DNA of 63,990 bases, the filler included, from Malassezia furfur (Eukaryota): assembly GCA_052055015.1 (NCBI GenBank). It is 4 parts of 4 records of this genome, joined end to end, with 100 filler letters (N's around TTAATTAATTAA, not from the genome) between each part and the next. Parts side by side here need not be neighbours in the genome. Positions count along the whole stretch, not along the records: positions 1 to 16,808 come from JBQJIT010000239.1; 3 more parts are not named here. The stretch is one strand, 5' to 3'. The notes beneath the pieces are model-generated. The model saw only the letters and a list, made by a program, of their open reading frames with translations, searched no databases and was not told where the DNA came from. Positions 1-63,065 of this stretch are shown one piece after another. Position 1 is the stretch's first letter. Each line of letters starts with the position of its first letter. Position numbers and translations under genes: made by a program.

Positions 1-135
1 TAGAAGCGAAGCACGTGGAAGTCGGCACGTGAGCGAACCCGATGGGGCGTGGCCACCGGCGCTGCCCCGCGCGGACGCACCGCGCACGGCACGCCCAAGA
101 CGCGCGATCGCTCACCGGTGCGCCGCCCACGGACC

Positions 136-1962
136 ATGGCCACAGTCGTGCCGCGCACCAAGAAACGGCGCGTCTCGCCGCATGGCGCGATTGGCGCCGA
201 TCCAAGCTACGGCTTGGCGTCCACTTCGCGCCCCCCCGCAGCGCCGCTGCCCCCGGCCGGCCTGACTAGTGTCCAGGAGGTCATCGACGGCCAGGAGCGC
301 CAGGTGTTTGTGATCAGCGACGACGAGAACGATACTCCGCCCGCAGAGCCGCTGCACAGCGCGGCGGGCACAACGCTCGCCGCCGCCGCACCGCCTGCGG
401 GCGGCAAACGCAAGGCGTCGCTCACGCATGCCGAGGAGGAACACAGCGCACAGAAGCGCCAGCGGCACGAAGCCAATGTCGCGATGCTCGACCAGCTCGC
501 TGCGACGCTGCATGCGCAGGGCGTGCGCGGCGCTGCGCCGCCCGCACCCGCGCAGGACGCCGAGTACGGGTACGTCGGTGTGCCACCGACGCCGCACTAT
601 GGGGTCCCCACGCCGTACTCGCCGCTGTACACCGGGAATGCCTCGGCTGCACACGCCAACAACCTTGCGAGCAGCGTGCTGCACCACGCTGCGCCACCCG
701 TGGCCTCGACGGCGCCCACGACGGCGCCCGCGACGCCCGGCGCACCGCCGTCGCTGGACAATGCGATGCTGATGACACGCGCTTCCAAGAAGCAAGACTA
801 CCTGCCGCCGTACGGGGCGCCGAGTGCGAGCCGCCCGCGGCCCTACTACGAGAAGCAGGGCGCGCCGTGGTACGCCGCGGAGCCCCCGCCGACCGAGGCC
901 GTGGACGACAAGGACGGCCACTTCCTCGTACGCGAGGGCGACCAAATCACGCCGCGCTACCAGATCCGCGGGCTGCTTGGACAGGGCACGTTCGGCAAGG
1001 TGGTCAACTGCTACGACCGCAAGCTGCAGCGCTTTGTCGCGATCAAGGTGATCCGCGCCGTGCAAAAGTACCGCGACGCGAGCCAAATCGAGATCCGTGT
1101 GCTGCAGTGCCTGCGGCAAAACGATCCCACGAACGAGTTCCAATGCGTGCAGCTGCTTGAGACGTTCGACTTCCGCAACCACGTGTGCATCGTGTCGGAC
1201 TTGCTGGACCGCAGCGTGTTCGACTTCCTCAAAGACAACCACTTTGAGCCGTTCCCGTGCCGCAACATTTGGCACTTTGCCAAGCAGCTGTTCAAGAGCG
1301 TGGCATTTTTGCACTCGCTTACGCTGATCCACACAGACCTCAAGCCCGAGAATGTGCTGCTCGTCGACGCCTCGTTCGACGTTGTGCCGACATCGCGCAG
1401 TGCGCACGCGCGCAAGAAGCGCGTGCTCCGCAACGACGATATCCGCCTGATCGACTTTGGCAGCGCGACGTTCAACGACGAGTATCACTCGGGCGTCGTC
1501 TCGACGCGGCACTACCGCGCGCCGGAAATTATCCTAGGGATGGGCTGGTCGTATCCCTGCGACGCGTGGTCGCTGGGGTGTATCCTCGTCGAGTTCTTCA
1601 CCGGCGACGCCCTGTTCCAGACGCACGACAACCTTGAGCACCTCGCCATGATGGAGCGCGTGCTCGGCACGCTCCCGGACGACTACCGCCGCAAGGCCGA
1701 GACGTACAAGCCCGAATACTTCCGCAACGGGCACCTTGACTACCCCAAGCCGGACACGAGCAAGCAGAGTCGGCGGTACGTGCAAAACATGAAGGCGCTG
1801 CAAGACATTGTGGTGCCGCATGCGTCGTACGCCAAGCACAACCAGCGCTTCGTCTCGCTGCTCCGCCGGTTACTCGAGTTCGATCCCAACAAGCGGATCA
1901 CCATGCAAGAGGCACTGCACCATCCCTATTTCGATTTGCTGCCCCACGAAATCCCGCCCTGA
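136..1962 (+). CDS. LKH1: LAMMER/CLK family dual-specificity protein kinase (Lkh1/Kns1-like)
   Basis: GQGTFG, HTDLKPEN, DFGSA and the EHLAMMERVLG signature; first in-frame ATG at 136. Confidence 0.93.
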   Translation: MATVVPRTKKRRVSPHGAIGADPSYGLASTSRPPAAPLPPAGLTSVQEVIDGQERQVFVISDDENDTPPAEPLHSAAGTTLAAAAPPAGGKRKASLTHAEEEHSAQKRQRHEANVAMLDQLAATLHAQGVRGAAPPAPAQDAEYGYVGVPPTPHYGVPTPYSPLYTGNASAAHANNLASSVLHHAAPPVASTAPTTAPATPGAPPSLDNAMLMTRASKKQDYLPPYGAPSASRPRPYYEKQGAPWYAAEPPPTEAVDDKDGHFLVREGDQITPRYQIRGLLGQGTFGKVVNCYDRKLQRFVAIKVIRAVQKYRDASQIEIRVLQCLRQNDPTNEFQCVQLLETFDFRNHVCIVSDLLDRSVFDFLKDNHFEPFPCRNIWHFAKQLFKSVAFLHSLTLIHTDLKPENVLLVDASFDVVPTSRSAHARKKRVLRNDDIRLIDFGSATFNDEYHSGVVSTRHYRAPEIILGMGWSYPCDAWSLGCILVEFFTGDALFQTHDNLEHLAMMERVLGTLPDDYRRKAETYKPEYFRNGHLDYPKPDTSKQSRRYVQNMKALQDIVVPHASYAKHNQRFVSLLRRLLEFDPNKRITMQEALHHPYFDLLPHEIPP

Positions 1963-2114
1963 TTCGGCCGCACCACGCGCCACGTCGCGGGCGAGGGGGG
2001 CGGGAGCATAGATACCATGTACTCTACCAGTGCTTTTTTTGTTGGCCTCGCTCTACAAGACGCGCACAAGGATGGACCGCACAATCGACCAGCTATCGAG
2101 CTACGACGAGACGC

Positions 2115-2651
<537 letters not shown>

Positions 2652-2764
2652 CTACGCACTGCTGGGCCAAGCAAGTAAAGAAGCAAGCCGTGGCGCCCCT
2701 CGCCCACTTAATATGGGCCGCCGTGGGAAAAAAAGAAAAAAGTCACGTGCATTATAGATCGGGC

Positions 2765-3331
2765 CTATGACCGCATCGGGCTGCGGCTGCGGGCGCGCTC
2801 GACGCGACGGCGCGCGTGCGGCGCGGCGCCACGCGGCGGCTGCACAAAGGCATAATCCGCACTCAGCGGCTGCTCCAGCAGCGTGAGGCCCGCCTTGCAC
2901 GCCTCAATCGCCTTGTGCGCCTCGCTTTGTGTCTCGTATTGTAGCAGCGCATAGCCTTTAACGTAGCCAGTGCGCCGGTCGAGGTTCAGATGCAGGTCCT
3001 TCACCTTGCCGTATTCCAGAAACAGGTCCAGCACGTCATCCTCGGTCGCCTCTTCGTGCACATTCGTCACCATGACGATCCAGCCCTCGACGGCTGTGTC
3101 AGCTAAGACACGTACATCGCGCCGCGCGCTCCTCGGTATCGTCCACTGACGTGTCGAGCCGCTCAAACGCGCCCGATTTCACCCCATCGAGGTCCTCGGA
3201 GGCGCCAGGGACAAAGCCGCGCCCGCGCCGCCGCACACTAGGGTCTGGAGGGTGAGTTGTGCGTGCATACCGTCGTCGAGATCCATCTCTGCGTCGCCAT
3301 CGCCCGCATACCGCTCGGCCCGCTCGCTCAT
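2765..3331 (-). CDS. RBM8A: RNA-binding protein 8A / Y14 (exon junction complex), 2 short introns
   Basis: RRGRGF and [19 protein letters not shown]...[14 protein letters not shown]; spliced from ATG 3331 through GTATGC..CAG and GTACGT..CAG introns. Confidence 0.92.
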
Positions 3332-3382
3332 CGTCGCCCAGAAGCGTCACGGTGCAAGTCACGTGGTCCGCGTCGTTCCAGC

Positions 3383-5839
3383 ATGACGGACGCACCGAGC
3401 GCGGCCGTCGAGCCCGTGCCGCAAGCGCTCGACACGCACCTACCGCAGCTACTGGCGGTGGCCCACGCACACCCTGACGATGCAATTGCGAGTGTCGCGC
3501 GCGAAGCGCAACCGCTCTGCGACGCTGTCCAGTCCGCACGCGACGCACTCCGCGCCGCCAAGGAACGCGACGGCGGCGCTGCGAGCCTGTACGAGGAGGT
3601 GTTGGCCCAGACCGTGCACGCCAAGGTGCTCACCTTTGCGCTCCAAGGCACGATGCAGGACGTCGCGGGGCGCCTCGACGTCGCGTTTGCGCTACAGCGC
3701 CTCGGCATCACTGACGCATCGCTGCCGGCCGCGGCGCTGGAGGAGTGGATGGAGCGCTCGACCATCCCCGCCTGCACCCAACTGTTTGCTTACATGCAGT
3801 CGCGCGCGGGGCCGCTGACGGAGGGCATGGTCGCAAATGCGGGCAAGGGCCTCGTGGTGCTGCGCCTGTGCAACGAGCTGCTCCGCCGCCTGTCCAAATC
3901 GCACAGTCCCCACACGGTGCTCGCCGGCCAGATCCTCACCTTCCTCTCCACGCACTTCCCCATCAATGAGCGCAGCGGCGTCAACCTAAAAGGTGAATTC
4001 CACGTTGAGAACGAGACGCCCATTGAGACCATCGACGCGCCCGATGCCGCGTCGGACGACGCGCCGCGCTCGGCGGAGGCCCACGCTGCGGACCCGCACT
4101 TTTATACCCTATTTTGGAGCCTGCAGTCCTTCTTTTCCAACCCAGCCCGCCTGTTTGAAGAGGGTGAGCATGTTGTGGTGCCTGGCGCGGAGTCGGCCGT
4201 TGCGATGCACCTCTGTGAGGCTACCGATGCGCCGATGCGTATCTTCCAAGCGGTGGCCGACTGCGTTTTGCCCGTGCTGCAAAAGTACAACCGCGCGGAT
4301 CCGCACCCTGCGAAGCGTGCGCGCATCGATGCAGATGCCGCGACCTTCTTCCCGAAATACCTCACCGGCAAGACCATGCTGGACTACGAGCTGAGCGACG
4401 CACAGTTCCGGCGGCACATCCTCACCCAGTTCCTCATCCTTTTCCAGTTCTTGCTGGGCTGCTCCCAGACGAGCCGCGAACGCACTACATCGTGGACGAA
4501 TAAGCTGCTCATCCCCCCGTTCACGCTCGCCGAGGCGGACGAAAAGTGGACGCGGCGCGCGTGGCGGCATGTACAGACGCAGCTGCGCGACACCGGCAGT
4601 GATGGGCGCGAGTACCTGTCGCTGCTGCTCCCCGTGCTGCGCCGCGAGAGCACCTGGATCCAGTGGAAGGCGGCAAGTGCGCCGACGCTCGAAAAGACGC
4701 CAAGCGACTGTCTCGATGCGCGCGCGGCGGCCGAGAAGGAACACGCCGCATTTCAAGCGCGCCTGGCGCAGTACCCGTACGCGCTTGGGACGCCTGCGCT
4801 CAGCATGCTATGGGAGGACGGCTTCCAACCCACGGCGCCTTCGGAGGTGCAAGTGCACGACGAGGAAGGCAACGTCAAGACGCTTGCGACCGACGGACTC
4901 GAGGACCTCGAGATGCCGCCCGTCCCGCCGTCGCTTGTGTCGCTCAGTCGGTCGATGCACATGGAGGAGCAGCGCGCCAAGCAACGCCGCGCCGCGGTCG
5001 GCGACGACGCGCAGGACGAGACGCTGATGCGCATCCAAAACACGCAGCAGAGTTTGGTATGGCGTGCGCTACGGAGCATCGATGCGTCTCAGCTGCGCTT
5101 GCTGGCGTGCATGGAGGGCATTGACGATATCCCTGGCCTGCTCAAGGCGATCCAGGCCGAGAAGCAGGGCGATGCCTACGAGGCGCCGATGCTGCGCGAG
5201 GCCGACGAGGAGCAGGATAAGACGCAGCGTGATGCCGAGGCCAAGGAGCAGGAGCGGCTCGAGGAAGAGAAGCGTGCACAGGAGGAGCGCGAAGCCAAGG
5301 CGCGCGCCGAGAAGCGCGCCGAGGAGAAACGCGCCGAGGAGAAGCGCGCCGAGGAGAAGCGCGCCGAGGAGAAGCGCGCCGAGGAGAAGCGCGCCGAGAA
5401 GAAGCGCGCTGAAGAAAAGCGCGCCGAGGAACAGGTCAACGCCGAGCGCGCCGAGAAGGAGCGGCAGCAGGCTGAGCAGGCCGAGATGCAAGTCGACGCG
5501 GCCACCGAGCAGCCAGCCTCGCAAGACGAAGCGCCTGACGAGCATGCAGAGCCGGAGCAGGACGAATCCGGTGCAGACGCCGTGCCGTCGCACACCGCCT
5601 CGCCTGGCATCAATGGCGAGCACGACACAGACGACGAGGCTGGGTACCCGTCGCAGATGCAGGTCGATGTGCCCGACTCCTCGTCGGTGCACACCGCAGA
5701 CGAGTTTGATCAGCGCTCGGCAGGCGCGACGCCCGACGTCGATGCAGACGCAACATTCATGACGGCGCCGCGCGCGGGGCCGTCGAGCGGTGAATCGTCG
5801 CGTGAGTCGACACCGGTGCCGCTGCGGTCGGACGACTAG
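3383..5839 (+). CDS. THOC1: THO complex subunit 1 (Thoc1/Hpr1)
   Basis: GKGLVVLRLCNELLRRLSK, FPINERSGVNLKGEF, FFPKYLT, FRRHILTQFLI and WIQWK motifs. Confidence 0.9.
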   Translation: MTDAPSAAVEPVPQALDTHLPQLLAVAHAHPDDAIASVAREAQPLCDAVQSARDALRAAKERDGGAASLYEEVLAQTVHAKVLTFALQGTMQDVAGRLDVAFALQRLGITDASLPAAALEEWMERSTIPACTQLFAYMQSRAGPLTEGMVANAGKGLVVLRLCNELLRRLSKSHSPHTVLAGQILTFLSTHFPINERSGVNLKGEFHVENETPIETIDAPDAASDDAPRSAEAHAADPHFYTLFWSLQSFFSNPARLFEEGEHVVVPGAESAVAMHLCEATDAPMRIFQAVADCVLPVLQKYNRADPHPAKRARIDADAATFFPKYLTGKTMLDYELSDAQFRRHILTQFLILFQFLLGCSQTSRERTTSWTNKLLIPPFTLAEADEKWTRRAWRHVQTQLRDTGSDGREYLSLLLPVLRRESTWIQWKAASAPTLEKTPSDCLDARAAAEKEHAAFQARLAQYPYALGTPALSMLWEDGFQPTAPSEVQVHDEEGNVKTLATDGLEDLEMPPVPPSLVSLSRSMHMEEQRAKQRRAAVGDDAQDETLMRIQNTQQSLVWRALRSIDASQLRLLACMEGIDDIPGLLKAIQAEKQGDAYEAPMLREADEEQDKTQRDAEAKEQERLEEEKRAQEEREAKARAEKRAEEKRAEEKRAEEKRAEEKRAEEKRAEKKRAEEKRAEEQVNAERAEKERQQAEQAEMQVDAATEQPASQDEAPDEHAEPEQDESGADAVPSHTASPGINGEHDTDDEAGYPSQMQVDVPDSSSVHTADEFDQRSAGATPDVDADATFMTAPRAGPSSGESSRESTPVPLRSDD
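5303..5430 (+). repeat. Coding 15-bp tandem repeat (GAGGAGAAGCGCGCC) encoding (EEKRA)n, about 8 copies
   Basis: Directly visible tandem array inside THOC1. Confidence 0.95.
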
Positions 5840-5844
5840 GTAGG

Positions 5845-7368
5845 CTAGGTACGTGAACGCTTGCGGGGCGTGTCCTCCAAGACGCCTCGTAAGGTTTGTA
5901 GTAGTGCGTCTGCATCGGGCACACGGTCGTGGGGCACAGCGTCGCGCGCGCGCTTCGCCTTGGCGGTCAGCTGTCCCTCGGCGTCGCACTCGTGCATCGT
6001 GTCGAGTTCGCGTTCGAGCCGCTTGACGAGCTGGGAAATCCCTTGCCGAATGCGCGGCGCGATGGCCTCGGTATGCAGCCGCGTCTCCCAGCCTGCTGCA
6101 ACGTACCATGCGAGCCGCATTAGGTGCGGAAACCGAAACTTGCGCGGCACCCGCGTCGCGATCTCCATCTCCTCCAAGCGCCAGTGCATCTGCACGTTAA
6201 AGTCCGACAAGAAATTCCCACCAATGACCAGCGTATCCTGCGGCGTGTGCACAGCATGAATCCACCCCGCGGGGATGAGCATCGTCTCGCCTGTCTTGAT
6301 TTCAACGCGCGAGAGCTGCTGCAGCGCATCGCCGAGCCACTCCGACGCTTGCCGCGCCGACGACGTCCACGCGCGGTAGGCGGCCAGGTTGGCAGGCGTA
6401 GGTGGCGCAAACAAAAATACCTTGCGGCCCCAAACCACATGGTAGTACACGTAGCTTGCCGCAAAATCGATATGGAAATCGGTAAAGGCTCCCTGCACGC
6501 CCATCAGCACGTAGCGCTGCACCTTGGGCCATTTGCTCGCGTCGTCGGCCGCCGGACGCTTGTCACGCGGCCAGTCGCGCTCGACCCAGTCGCTCTCGAC
6601 AACCATCGCCGGGGCAGCCACCATGGACTCCATGGGCGTGCCCGTGACCTCGAGACTGATGACGTTAAGCACCTTTTCACGCTCGGCAGCAGGCGTCTCA
6701 AAATAGGTCGCCCAGTCGTCCAGCGTCCAGGCAGACGACGACATTTGCGTCTGCACGTCAATAACTTCCACGTTCGTTTCGGGGCCTACAAGCCGCGCAA
6801 CGTCGCGGATCGTGGTTGTCTTTGGCGGCACACGCATGCCTTCGATCCGCATTTCTCCGTCGTCCGACGCAGGCACCAGCGTCGGTGCATCTAGCGCATG
6901 CTCGTCCGAGACAAGCCAATCCCTCGTCCAGGTCGCAGAGGGTACATGCCTTGCAACGCTGGGGAGCGTTTGGCAGTGCGCCATGTACTGCGCCCAGCGC
7001 CCTAGGGGATCGGGCGGACGTCCTTCCTGGATAGCCGCATAGTTCGTCGAGGGCCGCTCGCGTGCCGACCGCCGCCGCGGCGCGCGCATGGTGTGCGTAA
7101 ATCCCTCCGCCTGGCAAGCTTCACAGCACCACTTGGCATAGTTCTCGACATCGTCTAGACCCAGGCACGCGGTATGAAACCACGACCCGCATCGGAAGCA
7201 CGCGACCCACAAGCTCTTGTCGAGGTCGTCATGGGCCGTGCATTTTGGGCACCGTTCTTCGTCTTCGTGCGCGGGTTCCGGACTCGACTCCTTCTTGGAC
7301 ACAAAGGGCGTAGTAGGTGAAGTGACCCCCTCTTTCGCGTCTTGTTGCCCCACACAGGGCGCGTGCAT
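5845..7368 (-). CDS. JHD1: PHD + JmjC histone demethylase (Jhd1/KDM2-like)
   Basis: PHD finger (CPKC...WVACFRCGSWFHTAC), FTDFHIDF and IPAGWIHAVHTP; start codon uncertain. Confidence 0.88.
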   Translation of the reverse strand: MHAPCVGQQDAKEGVTSPTTPFVSKKESSPEPAHEDEERCPKCTAHDDLDKSLWVACFRCGSWFHTACLGLDDVENYAKWCCEACQAEGFTHTMRAPRRRSARERPSTNYAAIQEGRPPDPLGRWAQYMAHCQTLPSVARHVPSATWTRDWLVSDEHALDAPTLVPASDDGEMRIEGMRVPPKTTTIRDVARLVGPETNVEVIDVQTQMSSSAWTLDDWATYFETPAAEREKVLNVISLEVTGTPMESMVAAPAMVVESDWVERDWPRDKRPAADDASKWPKVQRYVLMGVQGAFTDFHIDFAASYVYYHVVWGRKVFLFAPPTPANLAAYRAWTSSARQASEWLGDALQQLSRVEIKTGETMLIPAGWIHAVHTPQDTLVIGGNFLSDFNVQMHWRLEEMEIATRVPRKFRFPHLMRLAWYVAAGWETRLHTEAIAPRIRQGISQLVKRLERELDTMHECDAEGQLTAKAKRARDAVPHDRVPDADALLQTLRGVLEDTPRKRSRT

Positions 7369-7404
7369 GAATGGACCGTTCGCAGATCGATTTCCTCCAC
7401 ACCG

Positions 7405-8704
7405 ATGTCGTCCAAGAAATGGGACGAAGAGCTCGGCGCGTTGCTCGGGCTGGGTACGTTATCCACTAATGCCAGATGCGCAGAGCATTAGTGAACAAGT
7501 GCTGCCGTACCTCTCCACGCACACAACGCCTACAGCGCTCCGTCTGTACCTGCAGGATCTGATCGGAACGTCGCCCAAGGCCAAAACCCTCACGGAGCAG
7601 TTTGTCGCCGACCGATTTCCGTCGCAGGGCTCCGCGTCGGCTCCACCTGCACCCAAGCAGCCTCAGACACAGAAGCCAGCTGCTGTATCTTCGCAAGCGG
7701 CGAATGTCGAGTCGCCACGCAAAGTGGCGGCCAAACCGGTTCGCCTGACCCCCAGCAATGTGACTGCTGCACTCGCCGCAACCGAGACAACGGCACCGCG
7801 CACCTTGCCGCCGACGCAGGAGATGAAGGAGCTAGATACCGCATTTTCAATGCTTTCAATGGAGCCGTCGTCCTCGGAAGCAAGCGCGTTTGCACCTCCG
7901 ATCCGACGGCTGTGTCTGTGCCAGGGCGCTAAGCACCCGCTGGCCGAACACATGCCACTGTGCATGGCATGCGGCCTAATTCTATGTTCTGCACTTCGAC
8001 CGGTGCCTGTATCGCCCTACTCGGCATGCCCATCGTGCAATGCCCAGCCCATTGTCCCACCCCATACCCGCACGCAGCTGCTCAACCAGCTGCTCGAAAA
8101 GCGCGAGCAGCTCGTACAGGAACAGCAAGAACAAGAGGCCGAACGCAAAGCCGAACTCGCGCGCAATCGATACGCCGAGACGCCGTTCCCAACATTGCAA
8201 GGAACGCCTGCACCTACTGAGCCCGCGACGACGGCGAAACGCAACCGCGTGCTGCACCTCGACATGAAGACGCACAAAGTCACTGTGACGCGCCGCAAAG
8301 AGAAGCCCACGGCGGCGCCGAAAAAGACCCCCGAGCCGTCCATCTCGAGGGAAATGGCGACGACTGCTGAGGACGGTTCAGCGCTGGTCCACAACTATGA
8401 AGACATTGGATTCCGCCAACGTCATCCTGAAAAGGGGGCTCTGTATGAGCGCGCCGCTGAGCAGCATCGTGCCATGTCGACTTTGCCCCCTATGTCCTAT
8501 GTACCGGTCGAGAAGCGCGCCGCGCCGCTGGAGCCCGTGTGTTCCGAGGTGGACACCGAGGTGCCGGACCTGGACCTGCTCATTCAGGCCCGGCCGCCTG
8601 GCAGCTCTGCCGACGTCCAGCGGCGCAATAAGAACGCGGCCATTTCGGCCGGTGTCGCGCGTGCGCAGGGCCGCAAGACCGGCAAGCCTTCCAAGAAGCG
8701 GTAG
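7405..8704 (+). CDS. zf-C2HC5 protein (Rqt4/TRIP4/ASC-1-like), 22-nt intron 7454-7475
   Basis: CLCQGAKHPL...CMACGLILC...CPSC zinc finger; exon 1 MSSKKWDEELGALLGL joins in frame. Confidence 0.75.
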
Positions 8705-8797
8705 CCCATAGTCACGTGCACACCCGCACGGAGCAGGGCGAGACGGTCCGCGGCTCGTCGGCACCGACTTGTCGCGTCGGACTACGTGGATACCAGA

Positions 8798-9374
8798 ATG
8801 GGCGCAACTTCCTCGAAGCACGAAAGTACGTCGCTTGCGACGGAGCCCGTGGATAAGATGGAGGTACGTACATACTTCGCGCTGACCTACAGCTGGGCAA
8901 CGCCCTGGCCCGGAAACTCAAGGTGACTCCCGACGCATCGGCACCTGCCCCGGACGCGAAGCGCCAGGAGGTGATCGACTCGTCCATCCAGGAAAAGATC
9001 CATGCCGAGCTGAGCAAGCTCCGCAAGCAGGAGCAGGACATGCAGAAGAAAATTGAGCTTGCCCTCGAGAAGGAGAACATCGAGCGCCAGGGCAAGCCGT
9101 GGTTCGGCAAGGACAAGGGGCAGAGCAGCGAGCTTCTGCAGCAGGAGCTCAACCGTGTCAAGGAGCAAATCGAAAAGTTCAACAAGCGCAGCATCGACTC
9201 GTTCCCTGCGCTGAAGAAGGCGCGCGAGGATATCATTCAGTGCTACCGGTACGTTGACGTTATTCTGACCCTAGCAACGACACGAAGCGGACGCTGGACT
9301 GCTGGCGCGAGGTTGATGCCTTTAAAAAGGCCATCGCCGATGCGGAAAAGGAGCTCTTTGCCGCGTGGAAGTAA
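8798..9374 (+). CDS. MIC19: MICOS subunit Mic19 (DUF1690), 2 introns
   Basis: MGATSSK myristoylation-type start, coiled coil, C-terminal IIQCYR-NDTKRTLDCWREVDAFK after splicing. Confidence 0.85.
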
Positions 9375-9375
9375 T

Positions 9376-9871
9376 GGCGGTAGTAGGACCTTCGTTTTTG
9401 CCAATTGCATGCACGCAGCGATGCCAGGAGCGATCTGTCTGTCCAGAGGAGTAAGAATGGTACGGCGTGTGTGTACGTGTCTGCGCAAGGGACGGCTGCA
9501 TCGCGCAAGCGTCCGCAGCGTTTCGCGTGAAGAGGGTATCCAGTCTGTTGTTGATGACGACAGACTGGACGAACGGGGTCGTGGGCATGGTACATACCGT
9601 ATGCTCCCCTCATTTCCCCGGCTCCACTCCATTCTCTGGGCATTCTGGTCGTGTATAGGTGCCGTTTAGCAAAGCCATCATTGTCGTTCTTGTGTGCGAT
9701 AGAGAAGTGCATGTACTTGAGCTGCCATCGGAGGGCGGACGTAGTGTGAGTCCATGGCTTATACGTGTCCTTGTTCTAGAAAATCTATGGCGATGGAGTG
9801 CACGAGGAGTAGCGAGAGACTAAAATGAAGGACTGTTGAGAACATAGGGATTGCGATTTCATGCTACCGCC
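9376..9871 (+). ncRNA. Candidate structured non-coding RNA of unknown class (~500 nt)
   Basis: Nested long-range helices 9376-85/9862-71 and 9389-98/9822-31; rod 9443-85/9580-9639; 13-bp hairpin 9539-9569; GCAA tetraloop at 9505-08; many G-U pairs that work only on the + strand; no credible ORF. Confidence 0.55.
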
Positions 9872-10260
9872 GTCGGCACGGCCGTCGGAGTGATGGAGGA
9901 CGCCCAGCGTCACTTTGTCCTACCGCCTCTTTTTCGGCCATATCTTAGAAATGTCGTACGAGGCAGCTGCGCACGACGACCTCGTTCAGGGCCATGCTCC
10001 TCCTGCCTTCCTCTGTCCCCGCAACGACGCACCTCCACGAACGACACGGCGCGCGCGGCGCGCGGCCGGTCCTAAGTGGAGCTCCGGCTGACTCCGGAAG
10101 CAGCTGCAAGCGATAGGCTAATGCATTCACGTTGATTGGCCGGCGTAAACCGGAGCGAAATTCCCAAACCCCCATAGCCCACGCGCGGCCGCCAGGTTTT
10201 TACCCTTGGAACGACACGTCCAGGTCAGGTTCCACGGCTTCTTTCCGGTCGCTACCTACC

Positions 10261-12231
10261 ATGATTGCTGGCAGTGCGCTTCTGCGCAACGTGTCCCGCA
10301 CGTCGGCACGCCGCGTGCCTTCTACGCCTCTCTCGTTCCGCGCGCAGTTCCATGCGACGACCAAGGCCAGCCGTGTGGTCAACACACAGCCGCTGAGTGC
10401 CAAGGCCGCTGAGCGCCCCGGCGGTGTGCCCGACCTGTCGAAGGGCTACCCGATCGTGGAGCATGAGTACGATGCGATCGTTGTGGGTGCTGGTGGTGCC
10501 GGTCTGCGCGCCGCGTTCGGTCTGGCTGAGGGCGGTCTGAAGACGGCGTGTATCACGAAGCTGTTCCCTACGCGTTCGCACACGGTCGCTGCGCAGGGCG
10601 GTATCAACGCCGCGCTCGGAAACATGACTGTGGATGACTGGCGCTGGCACATGTACGACACCGTCAAAGGTTCGGACTGGCTCGGTGACCAGGATGCGAT
10701 CCACTACATGTGCCGTGAGGCGCCGCACACGGTGCTGGAGCTGGAGCACTACGGTCTGCCCTTCTCGCGCACGAGCGAGGGCAAGATTTACCAGCGCGCC
10801 TTTGGTGGTCAGTCGCTCGACTTTGGCAAGGGCGGTCAGGCGTACCGCTGCGCCGCCGCGGCCGACCGTACCGGCCATGCGATGCTTCACACGCTCTACG
10901 GCCAGTCGCTGCGTCACAATACCAACTACTTCATTGAGTTCTTTGCGCTGGACCTGATCATGGAGGACGGCGCGTGTGTCGGTGTGATGGCGCTCAACCT
11001 CGAGGACGGTACGCTGCACCGCTTCCGCGCACACAACACGGTGCTGGCGACCGGTGGGTACGGCAAGGCATACTTTAGTGCGACCAGTGCGCACACCTGC
11101 ACGGGCGATGGTCTCGCGATGGTCTCGCGTGCCGGCCTGCCGTTGCAGGACCTCGAGTTTGTGCAGTTCCACCCGACCGGCATCTACGGTGCCGGCTGTC
11201 TGATCACGGAGGGCTCGCGTGGTGAGGGTGGCTACCTGCTCAACTCGGAGGGTGAGCGTTTCATGGAGCGCTACGCGCCCACGGCCAAGGACCTGGCCTC
11301 GCGTGACGTCGTGTCGCGTTCGATGACCATGGAGATCCGCGACGGCCGCGGTGTGGGTCCCGAGAAGGACCACATCTACCTGCAGCTCTCGCACCTGCCC
11401 GCCTCGGTGCTCCACGAGCGCCTGCCGGGTATCTCGGAGACGGCGAGCATCTTTGCGGGTGTGGACGTGACCAAGGAGCCGATCCCTGTGCTGCCGACGG
11501 TGCACTACACCATGGGTGGTATCCCTACGCGCTACACCGGCGAGGTGCTGACGGTCGACGAGCAGGGCAACGACAAGGTGGTCCCCGGCCTGTACGCCGC
11601 CGGTGAGACGGCGTGTGTGTCGGTGCACGGTGCGAACCGTCTGGGTGCCAACTCGCTGCTGGACATTGTCGTGTTCGGCCGCGCGTGCGCCAACCACATC
11701 CGCGAGAACTACGAGCCCGGCAAGCCGCACAAGGAGCTGCAGGGCGACAACGGTCAGCAGGCCATCAACGACCTCGAGGCGATCCGCACCGCGGACGGCT
11801 CGCGCACCACCGCCGACATCCGTCTGGACATGCAGCGTGTGATGCAGAGCGACGCTGCCGTGTTCCGCACGCAGTCGACGCTCGAGGAGGGTGTCGAGAA
11901 GATCGACAAGGTCGTCGCCGAGTTCCCCAAGGTCTCGGTCAAGGACCGCGGCATGATCTGGAACACGGATCTCACCGAGACGCTCGAGCTCCGCAACCTG
12001 CTCAGCAGTGCCGCCCAGACGATGCACTCGGCGGAGGCGCGCAAGGAGTCGCGTGGTGCGCACGCCCGCGAGGACTACCCCGAGCGTGACGACGAGCACT
12101 GGATGAAGCACACCCTCTCGTGGTTCGACGAGACGAACGGCGAGGTGAAGCTCAAGTACCGCCACGTCATTGACACCACGCTCGACGAAAACGAGTGCAA
12201 GCCCGTTCCGCCATTCAAGCGTAGCTACTAA
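10261..12231 (+). CDS. SDH1: Succinate dehydrogenase flavoprotein subunit, mitochondrial
   Basis: [38 protein letters not shown]; transit-peptide-like N-terminus. Confidence 0.99.
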
Positions 12232-12357
12232 GTATCTCTACATAGCGGGACAGCGACCACGGCAACGACCCTCGGACCCACCCCAACGTGGAGGCCAGCG
12301 CCACGTGATTGCAGCACGGCGTGCGCGGTGGCGCTTTGCGAACGCACGATCGGCGTC

Positions 12358-12996
12358 ATGTCGGGCATCTGCCGCACCAGGTACGCCCACGCGCACCGCT
12401 CACACGCAGGCTCCAAGAAGAACGCAAGCAGTGGCGCCGCGACCATCCTTTTGTACGTGCCCGCGCCGCCAAACGCTAACGACAGGGGTTTTATGCACGT
12501 CCAGAAAAGGAGGCCGATGGCTCCCTAAACTTGCTCGTGTGGGAAGTAGGGATCCCGGGCAAGGCCAACGTACGTATCTCTTTACGCTCATCGCAGACGC
12601 CATGGGAGGGTGGCACGTACAAGCTTAAAATGTATTTCCCCGAAGAGTACCCCTCGAAGCCGCCGAAATGTACGCAGCAGCACCACCGCGACTGACCGAC
12701 AGGCAAATTCACCCCGCCCCTGTTCCACCCCAACGTGTTCCCCTCGGGCACCGTGTGCCTGTCCATCCTGGGTACGTCATGCTTCCGCGTCTTACGCAGA
12801 CGAGGAAAAAAGCTGGAAGCCGGCTATCACCATCAAGCAGATCCTGCTGGGTGTGCAGGACCTGCTCAATGACCCCAACCCGGGCGACCCCGCGCAGGCG
12901 GACGCCTTCCATCTATTTAAGCAGGACCGCGCAGCATACGAGCGCCGTGTGCGGCAAATTGCGCGCGAGATGCAGGCGCAGGGGCAGCTCGCGTAG
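12358..12996 (+). CDS. UBC9: SUMO-conjugating enzyme E2, 5 short introns
   Basis: Spliced product [21 protein letters not shown]...[37 protein letters not shown]. Confidence 0.96.
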
Positions 12997-13190
12997 CGAT
13001 CCATTTGTAGCATAGCAAGCGAGCCAACCCCGATGCCGCAGCACAACGCACCCAAGCAGCACCTTGGGCGCGCGTCGCCATCGTTTCCGCACACGCACAT
13101 TTCCGGGAATACACGAGCGACAACTAGCAAAAACACGTTGCAGTCCATGAGTGCATGGACGCAATCTGGCGTGGACAGGCACGACCGCGC

Positions 13191-13749
13191 TTACAAGCTC
13201 TCCATCTGCTGCACGACCTCGTCGAGCTCCCGCTTCGAGGCCTGGTACCTCTCCTGCGCCTCCTCGTACTTTTGTTCCCATTGGTCGCGCTCCTGCTCGA
13301 TGCCCTGGATCTGGCGCTCGAGCTGCTCCGCACGCACGTCCGTCTGGCGCAACCTGGTGTGAGCTTGGTAGAAACGTACTGCTCGACAGTTTCCTTGAGG
13401 TTCTTCTCCGAGGCGTCGAGCTGCTCCTCGAGCATGTCGATGCGGCGCTGGAGGATATCGACGTTCGACTTGTGGCTCTCGCCCTCCTCCTTGCCGACCT
13501 TGGCCTCACTGAGCTTCGACTCAGCCGTCTCGAGATCCGACTCCAGCACGGACAGCTTGTGCTGCAGGCTGGTGATCTCCTGCTCCTTCGACAGGTTGTC
13601 CTGCTCGAGCTCCTTGTTCTTCTGCTCGGCAGCCTCAGCGCGCTCAAGCGCCATATCGGCCTCCTGGCGCAGCGAGTTCAGTTTTTCCTTAATGCGGTCC
13701 TAATGCGGTGTTAGCATCGCTCTTAACATCGCATGCGCGCACATACCAT
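13191..13749 (-). CDS. TPM1: Tropomyosin; exon 1 is only the ATG
   Basis: MDRIKEKLNSLRQEAD... continuous coiled coil ending ELDEVVQQMESL. Confidence 0.92.
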
Positions 13750-14873
13750 ACTGCCGAGGTGTTGCTTGCCAGCGACACGAACGCCTCGCGCCCGGCGCCC
13801 GCGGCTCGTGTCACTCACGTGACATCGGGCTGTGACGTAGGCCACGCGTGTCCCCAAGGGACGAAACAAAGACACGCGTGGCTACGCGCGCTACACGGCA
13901 AACTATGGGGCGACGCGTCACGGCCGGTTTGGCACTCGCAGGAATCCATACTCATGCGACGTAGACACGAAGTAGCTCTCATCATTCCACGTGGTGCTGA
14001 GACCCCGCGTACCCCGCGACACAGGGCCAATCCCCTTCGGTTCCGGAGGAACCGCCCAGTGCCACGTAATGCCCCCTAGGCGGTGCGGGGCGTACCGCCT
14101 TGGCAACCACAGGCATACGCGACGGAACGAACGCTGCGCATGCATTCGCGTGGCCTCTGCTACCTCGATCACAGACTACGTTATCCCCGAGCAACCGCAG
14201 TCGTCGATGCGCCTTTTTTAACGTCTTTGGCCCGCGCGCTAGGCCGGTTGCCGGCCGACTTTTCCTTTTTCCGCTCGCCAAGCGAGGACGAGGGCCACGC
14301 GCCGCACAATTTGAGGGTCCCCCCTGGCGCTCCACACGCTCAACGCATGGCCACGCGGCAATGCGGACGCCACGTTGTCGGCTGGAAGAAGCGATAGGGA
14401 GTCTCGGCCGACGATTCATAGGAGCAAAACGATTTTTCGCTAGCATCGTTTACTAAATTCAGGAACGGGTAGCAAGTATGACATCACAGATATAAGGTTT
14501 CATTGGCTTAGAAGAGACGAGGAATACACCGAGTTCTACCTGCGCTCCTTTTTTTTTGAGTTTTATCCCGTGCGCGGTACGCGGTGCTTTCTCCGGCGTA
14601 ACAGCGCCTTGATTACACAGCGTCGGAAATTCTATCCCCCGGAACTACGTGTGGCAAGGCGTCAGAATTTGCAGTGCACTCTACAAACGTGTCTTATCCC
14701 CACAATCCCCTTCACGGCGTCTGCTCGTACTGTGGTGCGCCCACAGTCCATGTTTGGAAGACTTGTACACCTCGTTTGGACTTTGTAAGTGAGCCGCGTT
14801 CGTGCACCCTCTCCGCACCGCGCTTTATTTTTTCGACCCACCCACACCACTTCCCATCCTTTTGCGCGCCTAA

Positions 14874-16772
14874 ATGTTGCTAGGAGCGCAACAGATTGCC
14901 AACTTTTTCCAGTCACAGCCCGCATCGCCAGCGTCGCAGCAACAGCAGCAGCCCGCGGGTGCGCCGCGTCCCAAGGAGCGGCGTGCGAGCAACGACGATA
15001 TCGTCGGTCCCCGTGCACTATGGCAGCGCCATGCGACACGTTCGCGGACTCGCACGCGCTCGCGTGTGCACTTGCGTGGCGCGTACGAGCGCAGCTCGCA
15101 TGCCACATCGAGCCGGTCGCGTCCGCTACCCGACGACCACCCGCTTACGGCGCAGAACCTCGCCAAGCGTGGCTACCACACTTTCCAGTGCCTACGCGTG
15201 CCATTCCACGTCAAGAAGCGGTACACGTTCAAACGTGAATTGGGCATTGGCGCGTATGGCTGTGTGGCCCTGGCGTACGACGCCGAGACACACCAGGATG
15301 TCGCTATCAAGAAGGTGGCCAATGTGTTTGGCCGCGAGCTGCTGACGCGGCGCGCGCTGCGGGAGGTGACGAGTTTGCACTATCTGCGCGGTTGCCACAA
15401 TGTGTCGGAGCTGCTCGAGTTTGATACGAGCTTTATCGAGTTTTCGGAAATCTACCTCGTGCTCAAGGCGAGCGACGCGGATCTCTCGCAGATCATCCGC
15501 TCGAACCAGACGCTCACCGAGGCCCACATCAAGTACTTTATGGTGCAGCTGTTGCGTGCGATTCACTATATGCACAGTGTCCACCTTTTGCACCGCGACT
15601 TGAAACCGGGCAACCTCCTCGTGAACGCCGATTGCTCGCTGCGCGTGTGCGACTTTGGCATGGCGCGTGCCTTTGCGTGCCCGGCCAGTGCCCACAACGA
15701 GCTGCGCAAGGAGAAGGCCCCCATGGAGCGCACCGGCTCAGACGAGAGCGATCTGGGCGTCGCACACCCCAGCGGCGAGCTGCTGGACGCCGTGCCCGAG
15801 AGCGGCCGCGGCTCCTCGCCCGAGACGCTCGACATTGGCGGTAGCCGCGCGCCGTCGCCGTGTGGTGCCTCGTCGCGCCCGCACTCGTCGCACTTCCAGC
15901 TGCACGCGAGTGGCGAGGACGAGGGACTCAAGCGGATCGATACGTCGGGCCCTATCCAGTTCCCCGGCGGGCCGCTCACCGAGTACGTCTCGACGCGGTG
16001 GTATCGCGCACCCGAGGTGATGCTGTGCTTCCAGAACGGCTACGGCCCGCCCATGGACATGTGGAGCGTCGGGTGCATTTTTGCGGAGCTTTTGAACGGC
16101 AAGCCGCTGTTCCCCGGCAAGGACTACATCGACCAGCTGGCGCTCATCCGGCAGGTGCTGGGTGCGCCGAGCGAGCAGGTGATTGAGCGCATCGGGTCAC
16201 CCAAGGCCAAGGAGCACATGCAGTCGCTCCCGCTGTGCAGCAAAGTCCCGTGGAAGACCGTGCTGCCCAATGCGCCGGAACCGGCGCTGGACCTGCTCGC
16301 CCGTCTGCTCCACTGGGACCCAAGCAAGCGGATCAGCGCCGGCGAGGCGCTGGCGCACCCGTGGCTCGCGCGATACCGCGACGCGTCGTTTGCGATCAAG
16401 ATGCCCGAGCCGTTCAACCGCTTTGACGAGGTGGAGATGATCCGCACGCCGAGCGAGTTCAAAGACGCGCTCGAGCGCGAGAGCGCCATCATCGACCACG
16501 AGCGTGGCCCGCGTGCCATCTCGTCGTGGGACGACGGCCAGACGGACTCGTCCCAGGTCATGGTGTCCCCCGCGTCCAAGCAAGAGTGGACCAGCCACAC
16601 ACGATCAGGCAGCCCCCGGAGCGAAAGCACGATGGACACACACAAAGGCCTCGGGATGCATACGTACGACTGGACGCCTCCGTCGTCGTTTGACTCGGAG
16701 CCTGGCACCCCCGTCCACACCGGCAAGTTGGAGATGACGTCCGACCGTCACGACGATCCGTTTGAGGCGTGA
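14874..16772 (+). CDS. TEY-type MAP kinase (Slt2/Mpk1-related paralogue) with a long activation-segment insert
   Basis: GIGAYG, HRDLKPGN, DFGMAR, TEYVSTRWYRAPE, GKDYIDQL. Confidence 0.9.
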   Translation: MLLGAQQIANFFQSQPASPASQQQQQPAGAPRPKERRASNDDIVGPRALWQRHATRSRTRTRSRVHLRGAYERSSHATSSRSRPLPDDHPLTAQNLAKRGYHTFQCLRVPFHVKKRYTFKRELGIGAYGCVALAYDAETHQDVAIKKVANVFGRELLTRRALREVTSLHYLRGCHNVSELLEFDTSFIEFSEIYLVLKASDADLSQIIRSNQTLTEAHIKYFMVQLLRAIHYMHSVHLLHRDLKPGNLLVNADCSLRVCDFGMARAFACPASAHNELRKEKAPMERTGSDESDLGVAHPSGELLDAVPESGRGSSPETLDIGGSRAPSPCGASSRPHSSHFQLHASGEDEGLKRIDTSGPIQFPGGPLTEYVSTRWYRAPEVMLCFQNGYGPPMDMWSVGCIFAELLNGKPLFPGKDYIDQLALIRQVLGAPSEQVIERIGSPKAKEHMQSLPLCSKVPWKTVLPNAPEPALDLLARLLHWDPSKRISAGEALAHPWLARYRDASFAIKMPEPFNRFDEVEMIRTPSEFKDALERESAIIDHERGPRAISSWDDGQTDSSQVMVSPASKQEWTSHTRSGSPRSESTMDTHKGLGMHTYDWTPPSSFDSEPGTPVHTGKLEMTSDRHDDPFEA

Positions 16773-16808
16773 CGGCTGTCACCTGCCCCTCCCACCCACA
16801 CACCCTTA

Positions 16809-58192: not shown

Positions 58193-59075
58193 TTGGAAGC
58201 GGCCGCCCTGGTCCAATCCGTGCGGGGTCAGCTTGCGCGCGCTGTGCGCCCAGTTCGTTTGCCCGCTGCGAGCCTCACAGCTCTCGCCTTAGACATATGC
58301 CTCGTTGGGACGGGCGTGCGCACCGCAACGCTGATCGACCAATTTGCGCCGTCCTTGCGCGCCTGTGAGGCCATGGCCGATGCACTCTCCAACGTACCAG
58401 GCATGGACCCTATCCTCTTGGTCTTGTTTGTGCCGGCAAAACAGGTATTTGTCGTGCACCGTACACGCATGCAGGCGCAGTATGAGCAGCCTGGAGCGCA
58501 CACCTACGTCAATATCGCACCCAACCATGCACCCACCGTACGCTAACTGCCTCATACAGCTCACTATCCTGCCACAAGGCACTTCGCACCTGCTTCATCA
58601 CATCTACAATGCCTGCAAAACATCACACGCCCTCGTCTTTCTCACCTCAGATGCACCTTACGAGGCGCGACAGGCAATGATACCCGCAGCTGGCTGGCTG
58701 CTAGGATACCCCGTTGTGTATGCCTTGGATGATGCACGGCCTCCCATCACCCCAGCATGGAACTACGATTGGGACGATACCCACGACGACGATTGGGTCG
58801 CCGTGCCAACATGCCTCGTCGATGTGTCGCTCTACCTGGTCACGGCACAACTCCGTCTCCCTGCATCCTTCGCGGATGCTCTTAACCTACACACGCATAC
58901 CCTTCTAGCATTCACGGTGCCTGGCAACCTACCCAACGCGTCGCAACTCGTTCAGAATGCGCGTGGGTCCGTGCATACAAATCTTCTTGAGGGCCTGCGG
59001 CGTACCAACCGGTGGAACGATGCAGAATTGACCGTACACATCGACCAAGCCGCCATGGATCGTGTCGCTCTATAG
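58193..59075 (+). CDS. DUF4504/C1orf74-like hypothetical protein; start codon unresolved
   Basis: LALDICLV..GVR.ATLID and AGWLLGYPVVY; short intron near 58538-58559. Confidence 0.55.
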
Positions 59076-61523: not shown

Positions 61524-62478
61524 ATGGAGTCCCAAGGTTACGAGGAGCTAGTGCTTCTCCAAGCAAGTCTAACAGACGCCGAATTCCAATGGCGTGGTAC
61601 TGCGGATGAGATAGATGCATGGAAGTCAAAACTGGCTGCCTTTGAGCGTGGAGAATGCCTCACTCCGGACACCATGCATTTCTCGCTGCAGGTAAGCGAG
61701 ACCTTGGGAATCTGGATGAACGTTTCTTTGGAGACTGGGAGTCATGAAGACGCTTTTCCCGGGATTACCATGGTCAGCTCAAGTGATGTCGTGCCGCTTG
61801 ACAAACTCAACGAGCTCGTCGACCAGCGGCGCTCTGAGTTGAGCAGCGAGAGTACGTGTATATAATGACCCAGATCTCCCCAACCCGGTCTTCGACATAT
61901 ACACAGCTCTTCGGGAGTATGTGTTTCCATTTGAAGAGGGATACCAGTCACATTCATCTGAAACATTAATCTCTGAGAAGAAACCGCCGAAACATCTTAT
62001 TATGAAACGAGTCATTTTCTGGTCTCATCATCTTGTTGCGCCATCGAAGCGGAAACAATTTGCGGCGTGGTGCCCAGAACTCCAAGTATGGGGCCTTTTG
62101 AAGTTGGGATACCCAGGCTTTCTTCTTTTCGAAGGTGAGGCAGAGGATATCGATGATATGGTCCGCCGCGTAAAGGTACGCTGCTCTCTTGACACAGAAC
62201 ATGCAATGGCATGCCATCTCTATGCGAGTCGAAGTCACCTGGTCTTTTGAGAGCCAAAATAAACCTGAAGATATTCACACACAGGCGCTTCGTTCATGTG
62301 CACTGGCTGCAGGGCGCTCGGTGGTCGAGGGGCCCAAGCTTCGCACAGATTGCCAAGAAGTGCAAGACATGGGCCAGTTTGTTGCTACGTACGTTGCATC
62401 GGCTTATACAGACTGCGCCGGCTTTCATTACCTGAGGAGGAGATTGTCGATGCTTGCCATTTACGCAAGACGCAGTAG
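61524..62478 (+). CDS. RWD/DUF1115 domain protein, 3 introns
   Basis: RVIFWSHHLVAPSKRK..WGLLKLGYPGFLLFEGE..VRRVK|NMQWHA. Confidence 0.8.
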
Positions 62479-63045
62479 CAAAAAATTGGGCGCGTATGCA
62501 CCTGCACGGACCCTGCGTGCGCGCGAGGCGGGCCAAGACCCTTGTATAGCGAAGCAAAAACTTCATTGGGCTATACCGCACGACGCATGACCGGCATGTG
62601 CCCGAGGGCACAAAACAAGCCCCCATATGGCCTTTGCTCTTCACTTTCATTGAATAAGCTCCGGACGGTACCAAGGAAGGAAGAGCACAGGAAACAGAAT
62701 ACCATTTACACCCGGAGCTGCTCTCGAAAGAGACTTCACGCAAGAGTCTTCGGCACAAATTGTCCCTCAACTTGCGGACAGAAACACACAGTGAGAATGC
62801 AAGTCATACTTGCCTGTTTGACGACAACGCCGTTTCTGCTTGAATTGTCATGTTAGGATTACCAAGTGACTACATCGCTGGGATCCGAGTCGCTAGCGCA
62901 GCGCTAGATATACCAGCGCATCAATAGATCAATCTACCATCTCAGGTGACGAATATGCCACCGAGAACGAGTAGGACGTGCGACTGCGTCTCCAGGAGAC
63001 CAACGTGCAGGGTGTCCAAAGGCCAATGTGGGGGCTTGTCGTGAA
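62475..63045 (-). ncRNA. TER: Candidate telomerase RNA (ends approximate)
   Basis: In order 5'->3': enclosing helix 63017-39/62615-36, template UAAUCCUAA 62853-61, pseudoknot 62635-62719, P5/P6/P6.1-like junction 62514-62587, Sm site AAUUUUUUG 62479-87. Confidence 0.75.
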
Positions 63046-63065
63046 ACTACGATTCCGCTTAGTCA

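Follow-up and report, generated by a model that had tools for sequence, protein, structure and literature searches.

What occupies the long gap between MIC19 and SDH1 in the skin yeast Malassezia furfur? A sequence-only reading had taken positions 9376-9871 of the window (the whole stretch of DNA analysed, 63,990 nt) for a discrete, highly structured non-coding RNA beginning directly behind the MIC19 stop codon. We compared the two copies of the locus in this genome, and searched for known RNA families and for related loci in metagenomes. From its sequence and fold, the element is predicted to be a long 3′ UTR of the MIC19 mRNA, folded and lineage-restricted, a reading to which we give an even chance. 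A literature search, with subscription journals largely outside it, found no RNA between MIC19 and SDH1 in Malassezia; as far as searched, the element is undescribed, and structured fungal 3′ UTRs are already known as a kind.

The MIC19-SDH1 interval in M. furfur and its relatives

The window consists of four pieces with N runs between them, and contig C239, which carries the locus, accounts for positions 1-16808 only. The genes and motifs that bound the element are the following.

8798..9374, + strand: MIC19 gene (DUF1690), the host transcription unit; exons 8798-8863, 8893-9248 and 9275-9374, from the spliced translation
10063..10139, + strand: SDH1 promoter motifs CGGCCG, CCGG-N6-YCGG and CCAAT box, identified by eye; the 3′ bound of the element, outside it
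10261..12231, + strand: SDH1 gene, the downstream neighbour (Pfam PF00890/PF02910)

The upstream gene matches Pfam PF07956 (DUF1690), and its protein is 99% identical to a Malassezia furfur protein; the proteins of relatives carry the name MICOS subunit mic19. Because the MIC19 stop codon is the TAA at 9372-9374, the element starts 2 nt past the stop, directly behind the gene as originally proposed. The accession numbers of MIC19 and SDH1 are consecutive in two M. furfur annotations and in M. cuniculi, and the two M. furfur annotations therefore place no annotated protein gene in between. By eye, the SDH1 promoter footprint, in the order CGGCCG, CCGG-N6-YCGG, CCAAT box, is common to six Malassezia lineages (in relatives at L006 3295-3517, L007 3121-3345, L011 3116-3388, L015 3260-3347 and L016 3087-3312); we take its motifs to resemble zinc-cluster and Hap-complex sites. 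At the end of MIC19, M. furfur (window 9340-9374) is without the last intron, which all five other lineages have and which in them precedes the final ELMAAWK-type codons.

In the 13.7-Mb assembly, the locus is present twice, on C239 (the window) and on C118, with 88% identity between the copies across 16 kb. Two copies so diverged fit M. furfur hybrids, for which PMC9040865 gives ~10% divergence between the parents. The second copy (L002) served as a built-in comparison for the window copy.

Region 9376-9871 is non-coding, as the sequence-only reading had held. Specifically, 4/4 ungapped blocks are without codon periodicity, substitutions between the two copies are spread evenly over the three codon positions in these blocks, and the copies differ by single-base indels. 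In addition, 6/6 overlapping ORFs of the region are without a Pfam match below E 0.06. A protein-coding or pseudogene reading was rejected on the missing periodicity and on frames broken differently in each copy. A stop-codon read-through signal was rejected because another stop follows two codons further on in both copies, and an intron because splice signals common to both copies were not seen by eye. Malassezia centromeres are A+T-rich; a centromere was rejected at a G+C content of 51-57%, with an A+T-rich core absent in every lineage. Methylation-driven decay was likewise rejected, the CpG observed/expected ratios of 1.05 and 1.02 against 1.22 being a weak drop only.

A metagenome scan yielded 18 MIC19 loci, 14 of them Malassezia-like and falling into five lineages, and seven representatives were examined; no MIC19 locus was found in genome_contigs or viral_contigs. 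The MIC19 proteins of the five lineages are 59-68% identical to the M. furfur query, and those of M. obtusa, M. yamatoensis and M. japonica, at 79-91%, are nearer than the five compared lineages. Gene order is kept, with SDH1 after MIC19 in all 12 Malassezia-like loci that are long enough. The distance from the stop codon to the SDH1 CCAAT box is 757-760 nt in M. furfur versus 292-517 nt in the five lineages, so that the gap is 240-470 nt longer and, as had been remarked, unusually long. Similarity to the element was found neither by blastn of the MIC19-SDH1 gaps of the 18 metagenome loci, nor with a sequence profile of its 5′ 350 nt against 9 foreign loci, nor with a structure model against the gaps of the other lineages. 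The whole gaps of the other lineages fold unremarkably on the + strand (z 0.8 to -1.0 in 6/6).

In L006, the 232 nt right after the MIC19 stop (2995-3226) have a 15-bp closing stem and a z of -2.1, with ends chosen post hoc; in sequence they do not resemble the M. furfur element. A stem closing right after the stop is also found in L006, L007 and L014, and similar end pairing after other stop codons; since the whole-gap folds are unremarkable and such end pairing occurs elsewhere, these stems are given no weight.

The fold and its conservation between the two copies

The + strand of the window copy folds with an energy of -188.6 kcal/mol (z -2.32; 2/100 shuffles as stable), and the - strand reaches a z of only -0.47. 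The second copy behaves similarly on the + strand (z -2.21; 1/100 shuffles as stable). Both copies thus fold moderately better than shuffles, on the + strand only, the strand named by the sequence-only reading; "highly structured" is an overstatement at a z of -2.3.

All six complementarities listed in the sequence-only reading exist as described, and the ensemble treats them very differently. In the window copy, two elements dominate the ensemble and are near certain: the closing stem 9376-85/9862-71, of 12 bp at a mean pairing probability of 0.96, and the 14-bp hairpin 9539-9569, at 0.95. The helix 9389-98/9822-31 forms in the window copy (0.96) and is absent from the second (10.3 vs 0.0 pairs). 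The proposed inner rods drop out, at 0.3 expected pairs for 9443-60/9629-39 and 0.0 for 9461-85/9580-9601; the GCUGC/GCAGC hairpin has a probability of ~0.25, and 3/5 of its outer pairs do not form in the second copy. Of the features offered as signs of selection, G-U richness is a weak argument, and so is the single GNRA loop, whose hairpin the second copy does not keep. The features of the element are listed below.

9375..9385, + strand: closing stem, 5′ arm; pairs with 9862-9872 in both copies
9381-9386, + strand: first TAG motif after the stop, in the 5′ arm of the closing stem, with TAG at 9381 and 9384; probable 3′-end signal
9407..9480, + strand: domain A, a long irregular hairpin; lower stem 9407-9419/9467-9480
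9539..9569, + strand: 14-bp hairpin, with the strongest support of all elements; 13-14 pairs in each copy, 10/10 boundary choices
9574..9621, + strand: the looser of the two core-module hairpins; 8-13 pairs in each copy, 7/10 boundary choices
9627-9640, 9651-9662 (with TGTATAG) and 9670-9681, + strand: three blocks identical in both copies
9691..9861, + strand: divergent 3′ half; copies differ at 39% of sites; each copy folds, with different partners
9862..9872, + strand: closing stem, 3′ arm; an island 9/10 identical inside a stretch 61% identical

All structural comparison rests on two sequences. As the null, run in both directions, the observed substitutions were placed at random inside 100-nt windows. 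No simulated copy folds as stably as its real counterpart (0/45 each way), and at a register tolerance of ±3 the shared pairing is 52/51 versus 24/17 in simulation (0/40 each way). The elements standing out, all selected after the folds were seen, are the closing stem (1/40, 0/40), domain A (9405-9480; 0/40 in each direction, with 13.7 expected pairs in one copy and 17.2 in the other) and the hairpin 9538-9570 (0/40 in each direction); the hairpin 9574-9621 is not clearly over the null (8/40 and 3/40). Under a stricter null, with positions fixed and letters permuted, shared pairing is weaker and still present (5/50 and 0/50), with values as high in 1/50 and 0/50 for the closing stem, 2/50 and 0/50 for hairpin 9539-9569, and 3/50 and 4/50 for domain A. 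Across the closing stem, 8/10 pairs are unchanged between the copies, one is changed one-sidedly and one is broken. In the distal half of hairpin 9539-9569 the sequence differs between the copies and the pairing is kept, with changes that G-U pairing tolerates on the + strand.

At a tolerance of ±1, with nulls of 7-14 replicates only, 41/40 pairs are shared in the region, 15/14 on its - strand and 62/63 in TER; 13 control stretches (some coding), with nulls of the same size, share ≤19. Shared pairing depends on the ends: across 9 boundary choices it is 38.6 at the ends chosen from the window alone and 17-26 at the 8 others, and 45 control folds give at most 20. Windows of 110 nt, again with 7-14 replicates only, are less telling. 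The best of them, 9526-9635, shares 26/24 pairs, and 0/17 on the + strand stand at z 2 both ways (controls 4/148); furthermore, 8/148 control windows share ≥15 pairs, and a coding control also contains hairpins with 15-18 shared pairs.

The strict consensus is negative. RNAalifold gives the region an SCI of 0.50, which is not significant (9/40 and 4/20 nulls as low), with values of 0.87 for MRP and 0.95 for TER, both of which beat all their nulls. A hand-picked 69-pair structure, chosen from the same two sequences on which it was tested, has 18 one-sided and 4 double changes, and 34/500 shuffles score as high. Only the hairpin 9538-9570 is present at 10/10 boundary choices, and the two-hairpin module 9538-9621 is the sole part to persist when the ends of the fold are moved. 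For both copies to form the closing stem and domain A, the fold must run from ~9370 to 9880; domain A is lost under several other boundaries, extension to the CCAAT box displaces the closing stem, and mutually exclusive helices look equally "conserved". With two sequences, then, tolerant pairwise tests are positive and the strict consensus is negative. The earlier claim of selection looks right for part of the fold, as judged by the tolerant tests against simulated divergence, and we hold with moderate confidence that the folded element is real, moderately supported and narrower than first described.

The sequence itself has drifted further than that of known RNAs in the same genome. Identity between the copies is 70% in the region, versus 88% for MRP and 90% for TER (the part of TER held in both copies). 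The sites that differ make up 25% of 9376-9690 and 39% of 9691-9871, and at fourfold sites of seven neighbouring coding stretches 14-36% differ. The 5′ 315 nt are 75% identical and contain identical blocks of 12-14 bases. Of the 57.9 kb aligned between the copies, the region diverges most (59% over 300 nt), together with one intergenic island (C88/C109). This island served as an equally divergent control: transitions make up 61% of changes in the region, with 13 gap events in 487 sites, and 47% in the island, with 16 in 405. The region's transition share is nearer to that of MRP and TER (64-71%) than to that of the island, in which neither an Rfam match nor a fold common to both copies was found. 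The island (L052 515-950, C88:10515-10950) lies between convergent genes and contains an A+T-rich block identical in the copies, at about C88:10800-10845. Another divergent island, at 58500-58800, is a coding gene; window 58380-59075 holds a gene that evolves fast and weakly matches DUF4504, and the end of a small gene overlaps it on the opposite strand.

Searches for known RNA families

The diagnostic motifs searched for were consensus forms, those of snR30 being taken from Table 1 of PMC7601244. At the Rfam gathering thresholds the whole window has 0 matches; the search of the region gave 2 weak matches, both outside it, and that of the second copy none. At E ≤10, RF00009, RF01502, RF00017, RF00169 and the U3 and snR30 models are without a match in either copy. 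The Rfam check proposed earlier (RNase P, MRP, SRP, U3, snR30) thus agrees with the original failure to match any of these families by eye, and the motifs are absent or unshared as well.

In nuclear RNase P RNA, CR-I and CR-V form P4 with a bulged U, and CR-IV precedes the P2 3′ strand; none of these motifs is common to both copies. RNase MRP RNA carries the motifs GAAAGUCCC (CR-I), an AUAGUUA-type CR-IV and GGGGCUUA (CR-V), which are absent from the region in both copies. SRP RNA has a helix 8 symmetric loop with a conserved apical adenosine, a UGUNR Alu motif and a poly-U end; the helix 8 pattern is absent here, and no UGUNR stands at a position common to both copies. The boxes of U3 snoRNA follow the order A′, A, C′, B, C, D; neither copy has box A or box C, only one has box D, and Rfam gives no match. 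For snR30/U17, the m1/m2 motifs are absent from the region, and H/ACA boxes are not common to both copies; the 18S of this genome has canonical rm1/rm2 sites. Among guide snoRNAs, no H box at a shared position and no C/D or H/ACA boxes common to both copies were found. Complementarity to rRNA is ≤8 nt in 11 identical blocks, and the best bipartite match, 11-12 nt, lies outside any pocket. An antisense guide to rRNA, TER, MRP or neighbouring mRNAs was rejected, since matches are not above chance. The U1 5′ end, the U2 branch-site box, U6 ACAGAGA and an Sm site are absent from both strands of both copies, and a telomerase RNA template and Sm motif are absent from the region. Two of these RNAs were located elsewhere in the genome.

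L003 1501-2092 (C507) and L004 1501-2091 (C146), - strand: RNase MRP RNA, ~590 nt
~62400-63050 of the window, - strand: TER locus behind NDK1 and a cysteine hydrolase gene; template-like TAATCCTAA at 62853-62861; second copy L029

The MRP RNA here is more than twice the length of the Rfam model, with large G+U-rich insertions. The TER position is that published for Malassezia, where TER has a template, a pseudoknot, CR4/5 and an Sm site and lies at the NDK1 locus in 19 species (PMC12506658). Genes for RNase P, SRP and U3 RNA were not found elsewhere in the assembly among the best candidates scored with Rfam models and motif patterns: for RNase P, none of the best 15 of 313 RF00009 candidates qualified, and 0 of 8 matches to a CR-V pattern were confirmed. 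Because these searches score best candidates only, the blanks do not show absence; the genes are probably divergent or missed. Since they were not located elsewhere, RNase P, SRP and U3 are ruled out for the region by motif and divergence, and not by position.

Readings of the element and its relation to known systems

The region adjoins the coding region, lies on the same strand, is non-coding and folds on the + strand, as a structured mRNA 3′ UTR would. Transcription would come from the MIC19 unit, because there is no room for a promoter of its own, which would lie inside a MIC19 exon. The two diverged copies keep the module 9538-9621, and also the closing stem and the 5′ hairpin if the RNA ends near 9872. 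A folded tail on MIC19 is therefore the most likely reading, on moderate evidence, and more likely than a classical RNA gene. Against it, the TAG motif alone could account for conservation of the 5′ arm.

Alternatively, the region could be a neutral G+U-skewed intergenic expansion with one strong hairpin and a chance inverted match of opposite-strand TAG-type 3′-end signals, which we consider rather unlikely. The region and one other island are the most divergent in the aligned copies, and its differences of 25-39% are close to those at fourfold sites, as expected of a neutral spacer; a z of only about -2.3, a consensus fold that is not significant, mutually exclusive helices equally "conserved", a coding control with shared hairpins of 15-18 pairs, and the loss of the closing stem on extending the fold to the CCAAT box all point the same way. 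Neutrality fits less well with the matched divergent island, which has more gaps, fewer transitions and no shared fold, with letter-level compensation that persists at fixed positions, and with the identical blocks in the 5′ 315 nt. The sharp boundary optimum, with shared pairing peaking exactly at the stem-defined ends, is best explained by a discrete new ncRNA, a flexible scaffold of ~497 nt (9375-9872), cut from MIC19 read-through and protected at its ends by the terminal stem. Release from an mRNA 3′ region has been proposed for TER in Ustilago and Malassezia (PMC12506658) and is a precedent; in addition, the closing stem is kept in the second copy under both nulls, substitutions and indels follow a pattern like that of MRP and TER, and a UUGCAU..GCAGC motif, noticed post hoc, lies at a distance from the 5′ end similar to that in this genome's MRP RNA. 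This last likeness was dropped, since it is not significant (2-4/100 shuffles for the window, 24-29/100 for the second copy) and falls on the P3 stem, not on the loop motif. Such an RNA would also need its 5′ end cut at a stop codon and has no Sm site, C/D or H/ACA boxes common to both copies; its narrow distribution, with nothing homologous in the MIC19-SDH1 interval of five other Malassezia lineages, fits poorly. Given these points, the identity of 70% against 88-90% for MRP and TER, the non-significant SCI and a global fold that depends on the ends, the discrete ncRNA first claimed is not established, and we regard it as unlikely.

A housekeeping RNA (RNase P, SRP, U3 or snR30) that has diverged strongly draws some support from the failure to find RNase P, SRP and U3 among the best candidates elsewhere in the assembly, from a size and paired ends like those of P/MRP, and from basidiomycete SRP RNAs that escape standard models (PMC4605306). 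Its probability is nonetheless minimal, given the blank Rfam searches at E ≤10 in either copy, the absent diagnostic motifs, and m1/m2 motifs missing although 18S rm1/rm2 are canonical; an essential RNA, moreover, would not drop to 70% identity or quit the locus in five lineages. Scarcely more probable is a small non-autonomous mobile element, or another insertion, that has decayed and whose terminal inverted repeats pose as the closing stem. The extra length is lineage-specific, the inverted ends measure 10-12 bp, and there is one site, directly behind a stop codon. Within the reach of blastn, which distant paralogs could escape, the 2 genome matches are the two subgenome copies; no target-site duplication is visible at the flanks, and no pattern match was found in GTDB (genome_contigs), phage records giving only chance matches of 22-32 nt. 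Furthermore, on one strand the hairpin changes can be accommodated by G-U pairs, a sign of pairing in RNA, not DNA.

For the folded MIC19 tail, a mechanism can be proposed by analogy. TAG occurs ≤30 nt past the stop in 10/21 well-scoring genes (window and own-genome loci) versus 12% of random windows; because of this enrichment, TAG probably marks 3′ ends in Malassezia. MIC19 transcription may read through the first TAG signal to a later one, and the later 3′ end could lie at TGTATAG (9652-9658), which is conserved in both copies and after which identity falls past 9690, or at the TAG near 9845-9850, ~20 nt 5′ of the 3′ arm in both copies. The identical blocks within 9627-9681 are accordingly candidates for a second 3′-end signal or for protein-binding sites. 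In the long isoform, the closing stem would join the first post-stop bases to the end of the UTR, and this fold-back would place the poly(A) tail beside the terminating ribosome and mask the first 3′-end signal. Fold-back protects from nonsense-mediated decay in other organisms. The inner hairpins and identical single-stranded blocks would be putative protein-binding sites, and the bound proteins may set the stability or localisation of a message for a mitochondrial protein. Selection would then act on foldedness and a few helices, not on sequence.

Since most Malassezia genes end no more than tens of bases past the stop, a 500-nt folded tail would be a rare regulatory addition, here confined to one lineage and made to a mitochondrial architecture gene in a shrinking genome. 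If true, it would offer a clean test of whether long-3′-UTR fold-back is selected in nature. A released RNA, if that were true, would extend TER-type ncRNA birth from mRNA tails to a second case in these fungi, with helices kept while sequence drifts at a nearly neutral rate; it would point to mRNA tails as a breeding ground for new RNA genes in the compact Malassezia genome. For ncRNA discovery, a hybrid yeast brings its own comparison in its two subgenomes; MRP and TER pass it clearly, the element in part.

Among known systems, the element resembles RNase MRP and RNase P RNA (RF00030, RF00009) in its paired 5′/3′ ends, G+U-rich stems and a length near the 500-600 nt seen here, and MRP in a short similar motif near the 5′ end. 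It is without CR-I, CR-IV, CR-V and P4, however, and MRP itself lies elsewhere, is 88% identical between copies and has an SCI of 0.87. Non-canonical basidiomycete SRP RNAs, published for M. globosa and M. sympodialis among others, are missed by standard Rfam models as the element is, and the AGG...AGC at 9657-9676 loosely recalls their helix 8 loop; they measure ~280-300 nt, are Pol III transcripts with a poly-U end, and carry the UGUNR Alu motif and a conserved apical adenosine (PMC4605306), whereas in the element the would-be helix 8 loop differs between copies, with no GNRA and no shared UGUNR. The TER of Malassezia and Ustilago is likewise ~500 nt long, fast evolving and located in the 3′ region of a protein-coding unit. 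The analogy drawn by the sequence-only reading is looser than claimed, in that TER follows a cysteine hydrolase gene behind NDK1, genus-wide (PMC12506658), and the element has neither template nor Sm motif, lies at another locus and is 70% identical between copies, against 90%. The structured 3′ UTR elements of GLY1, MET13 and thioredoxin genes in Ascomycota (bioRxiv 10.1101/2021.02.01.429235) are, like the element, folded, non-coding, placed behind the stop of a metabolic gene and without a family match; they span 50-160 nt and rest on many genomes and RNA-seq, whereas the M. furfur element spans ~500 nt and is known from the sequence of its two copies.
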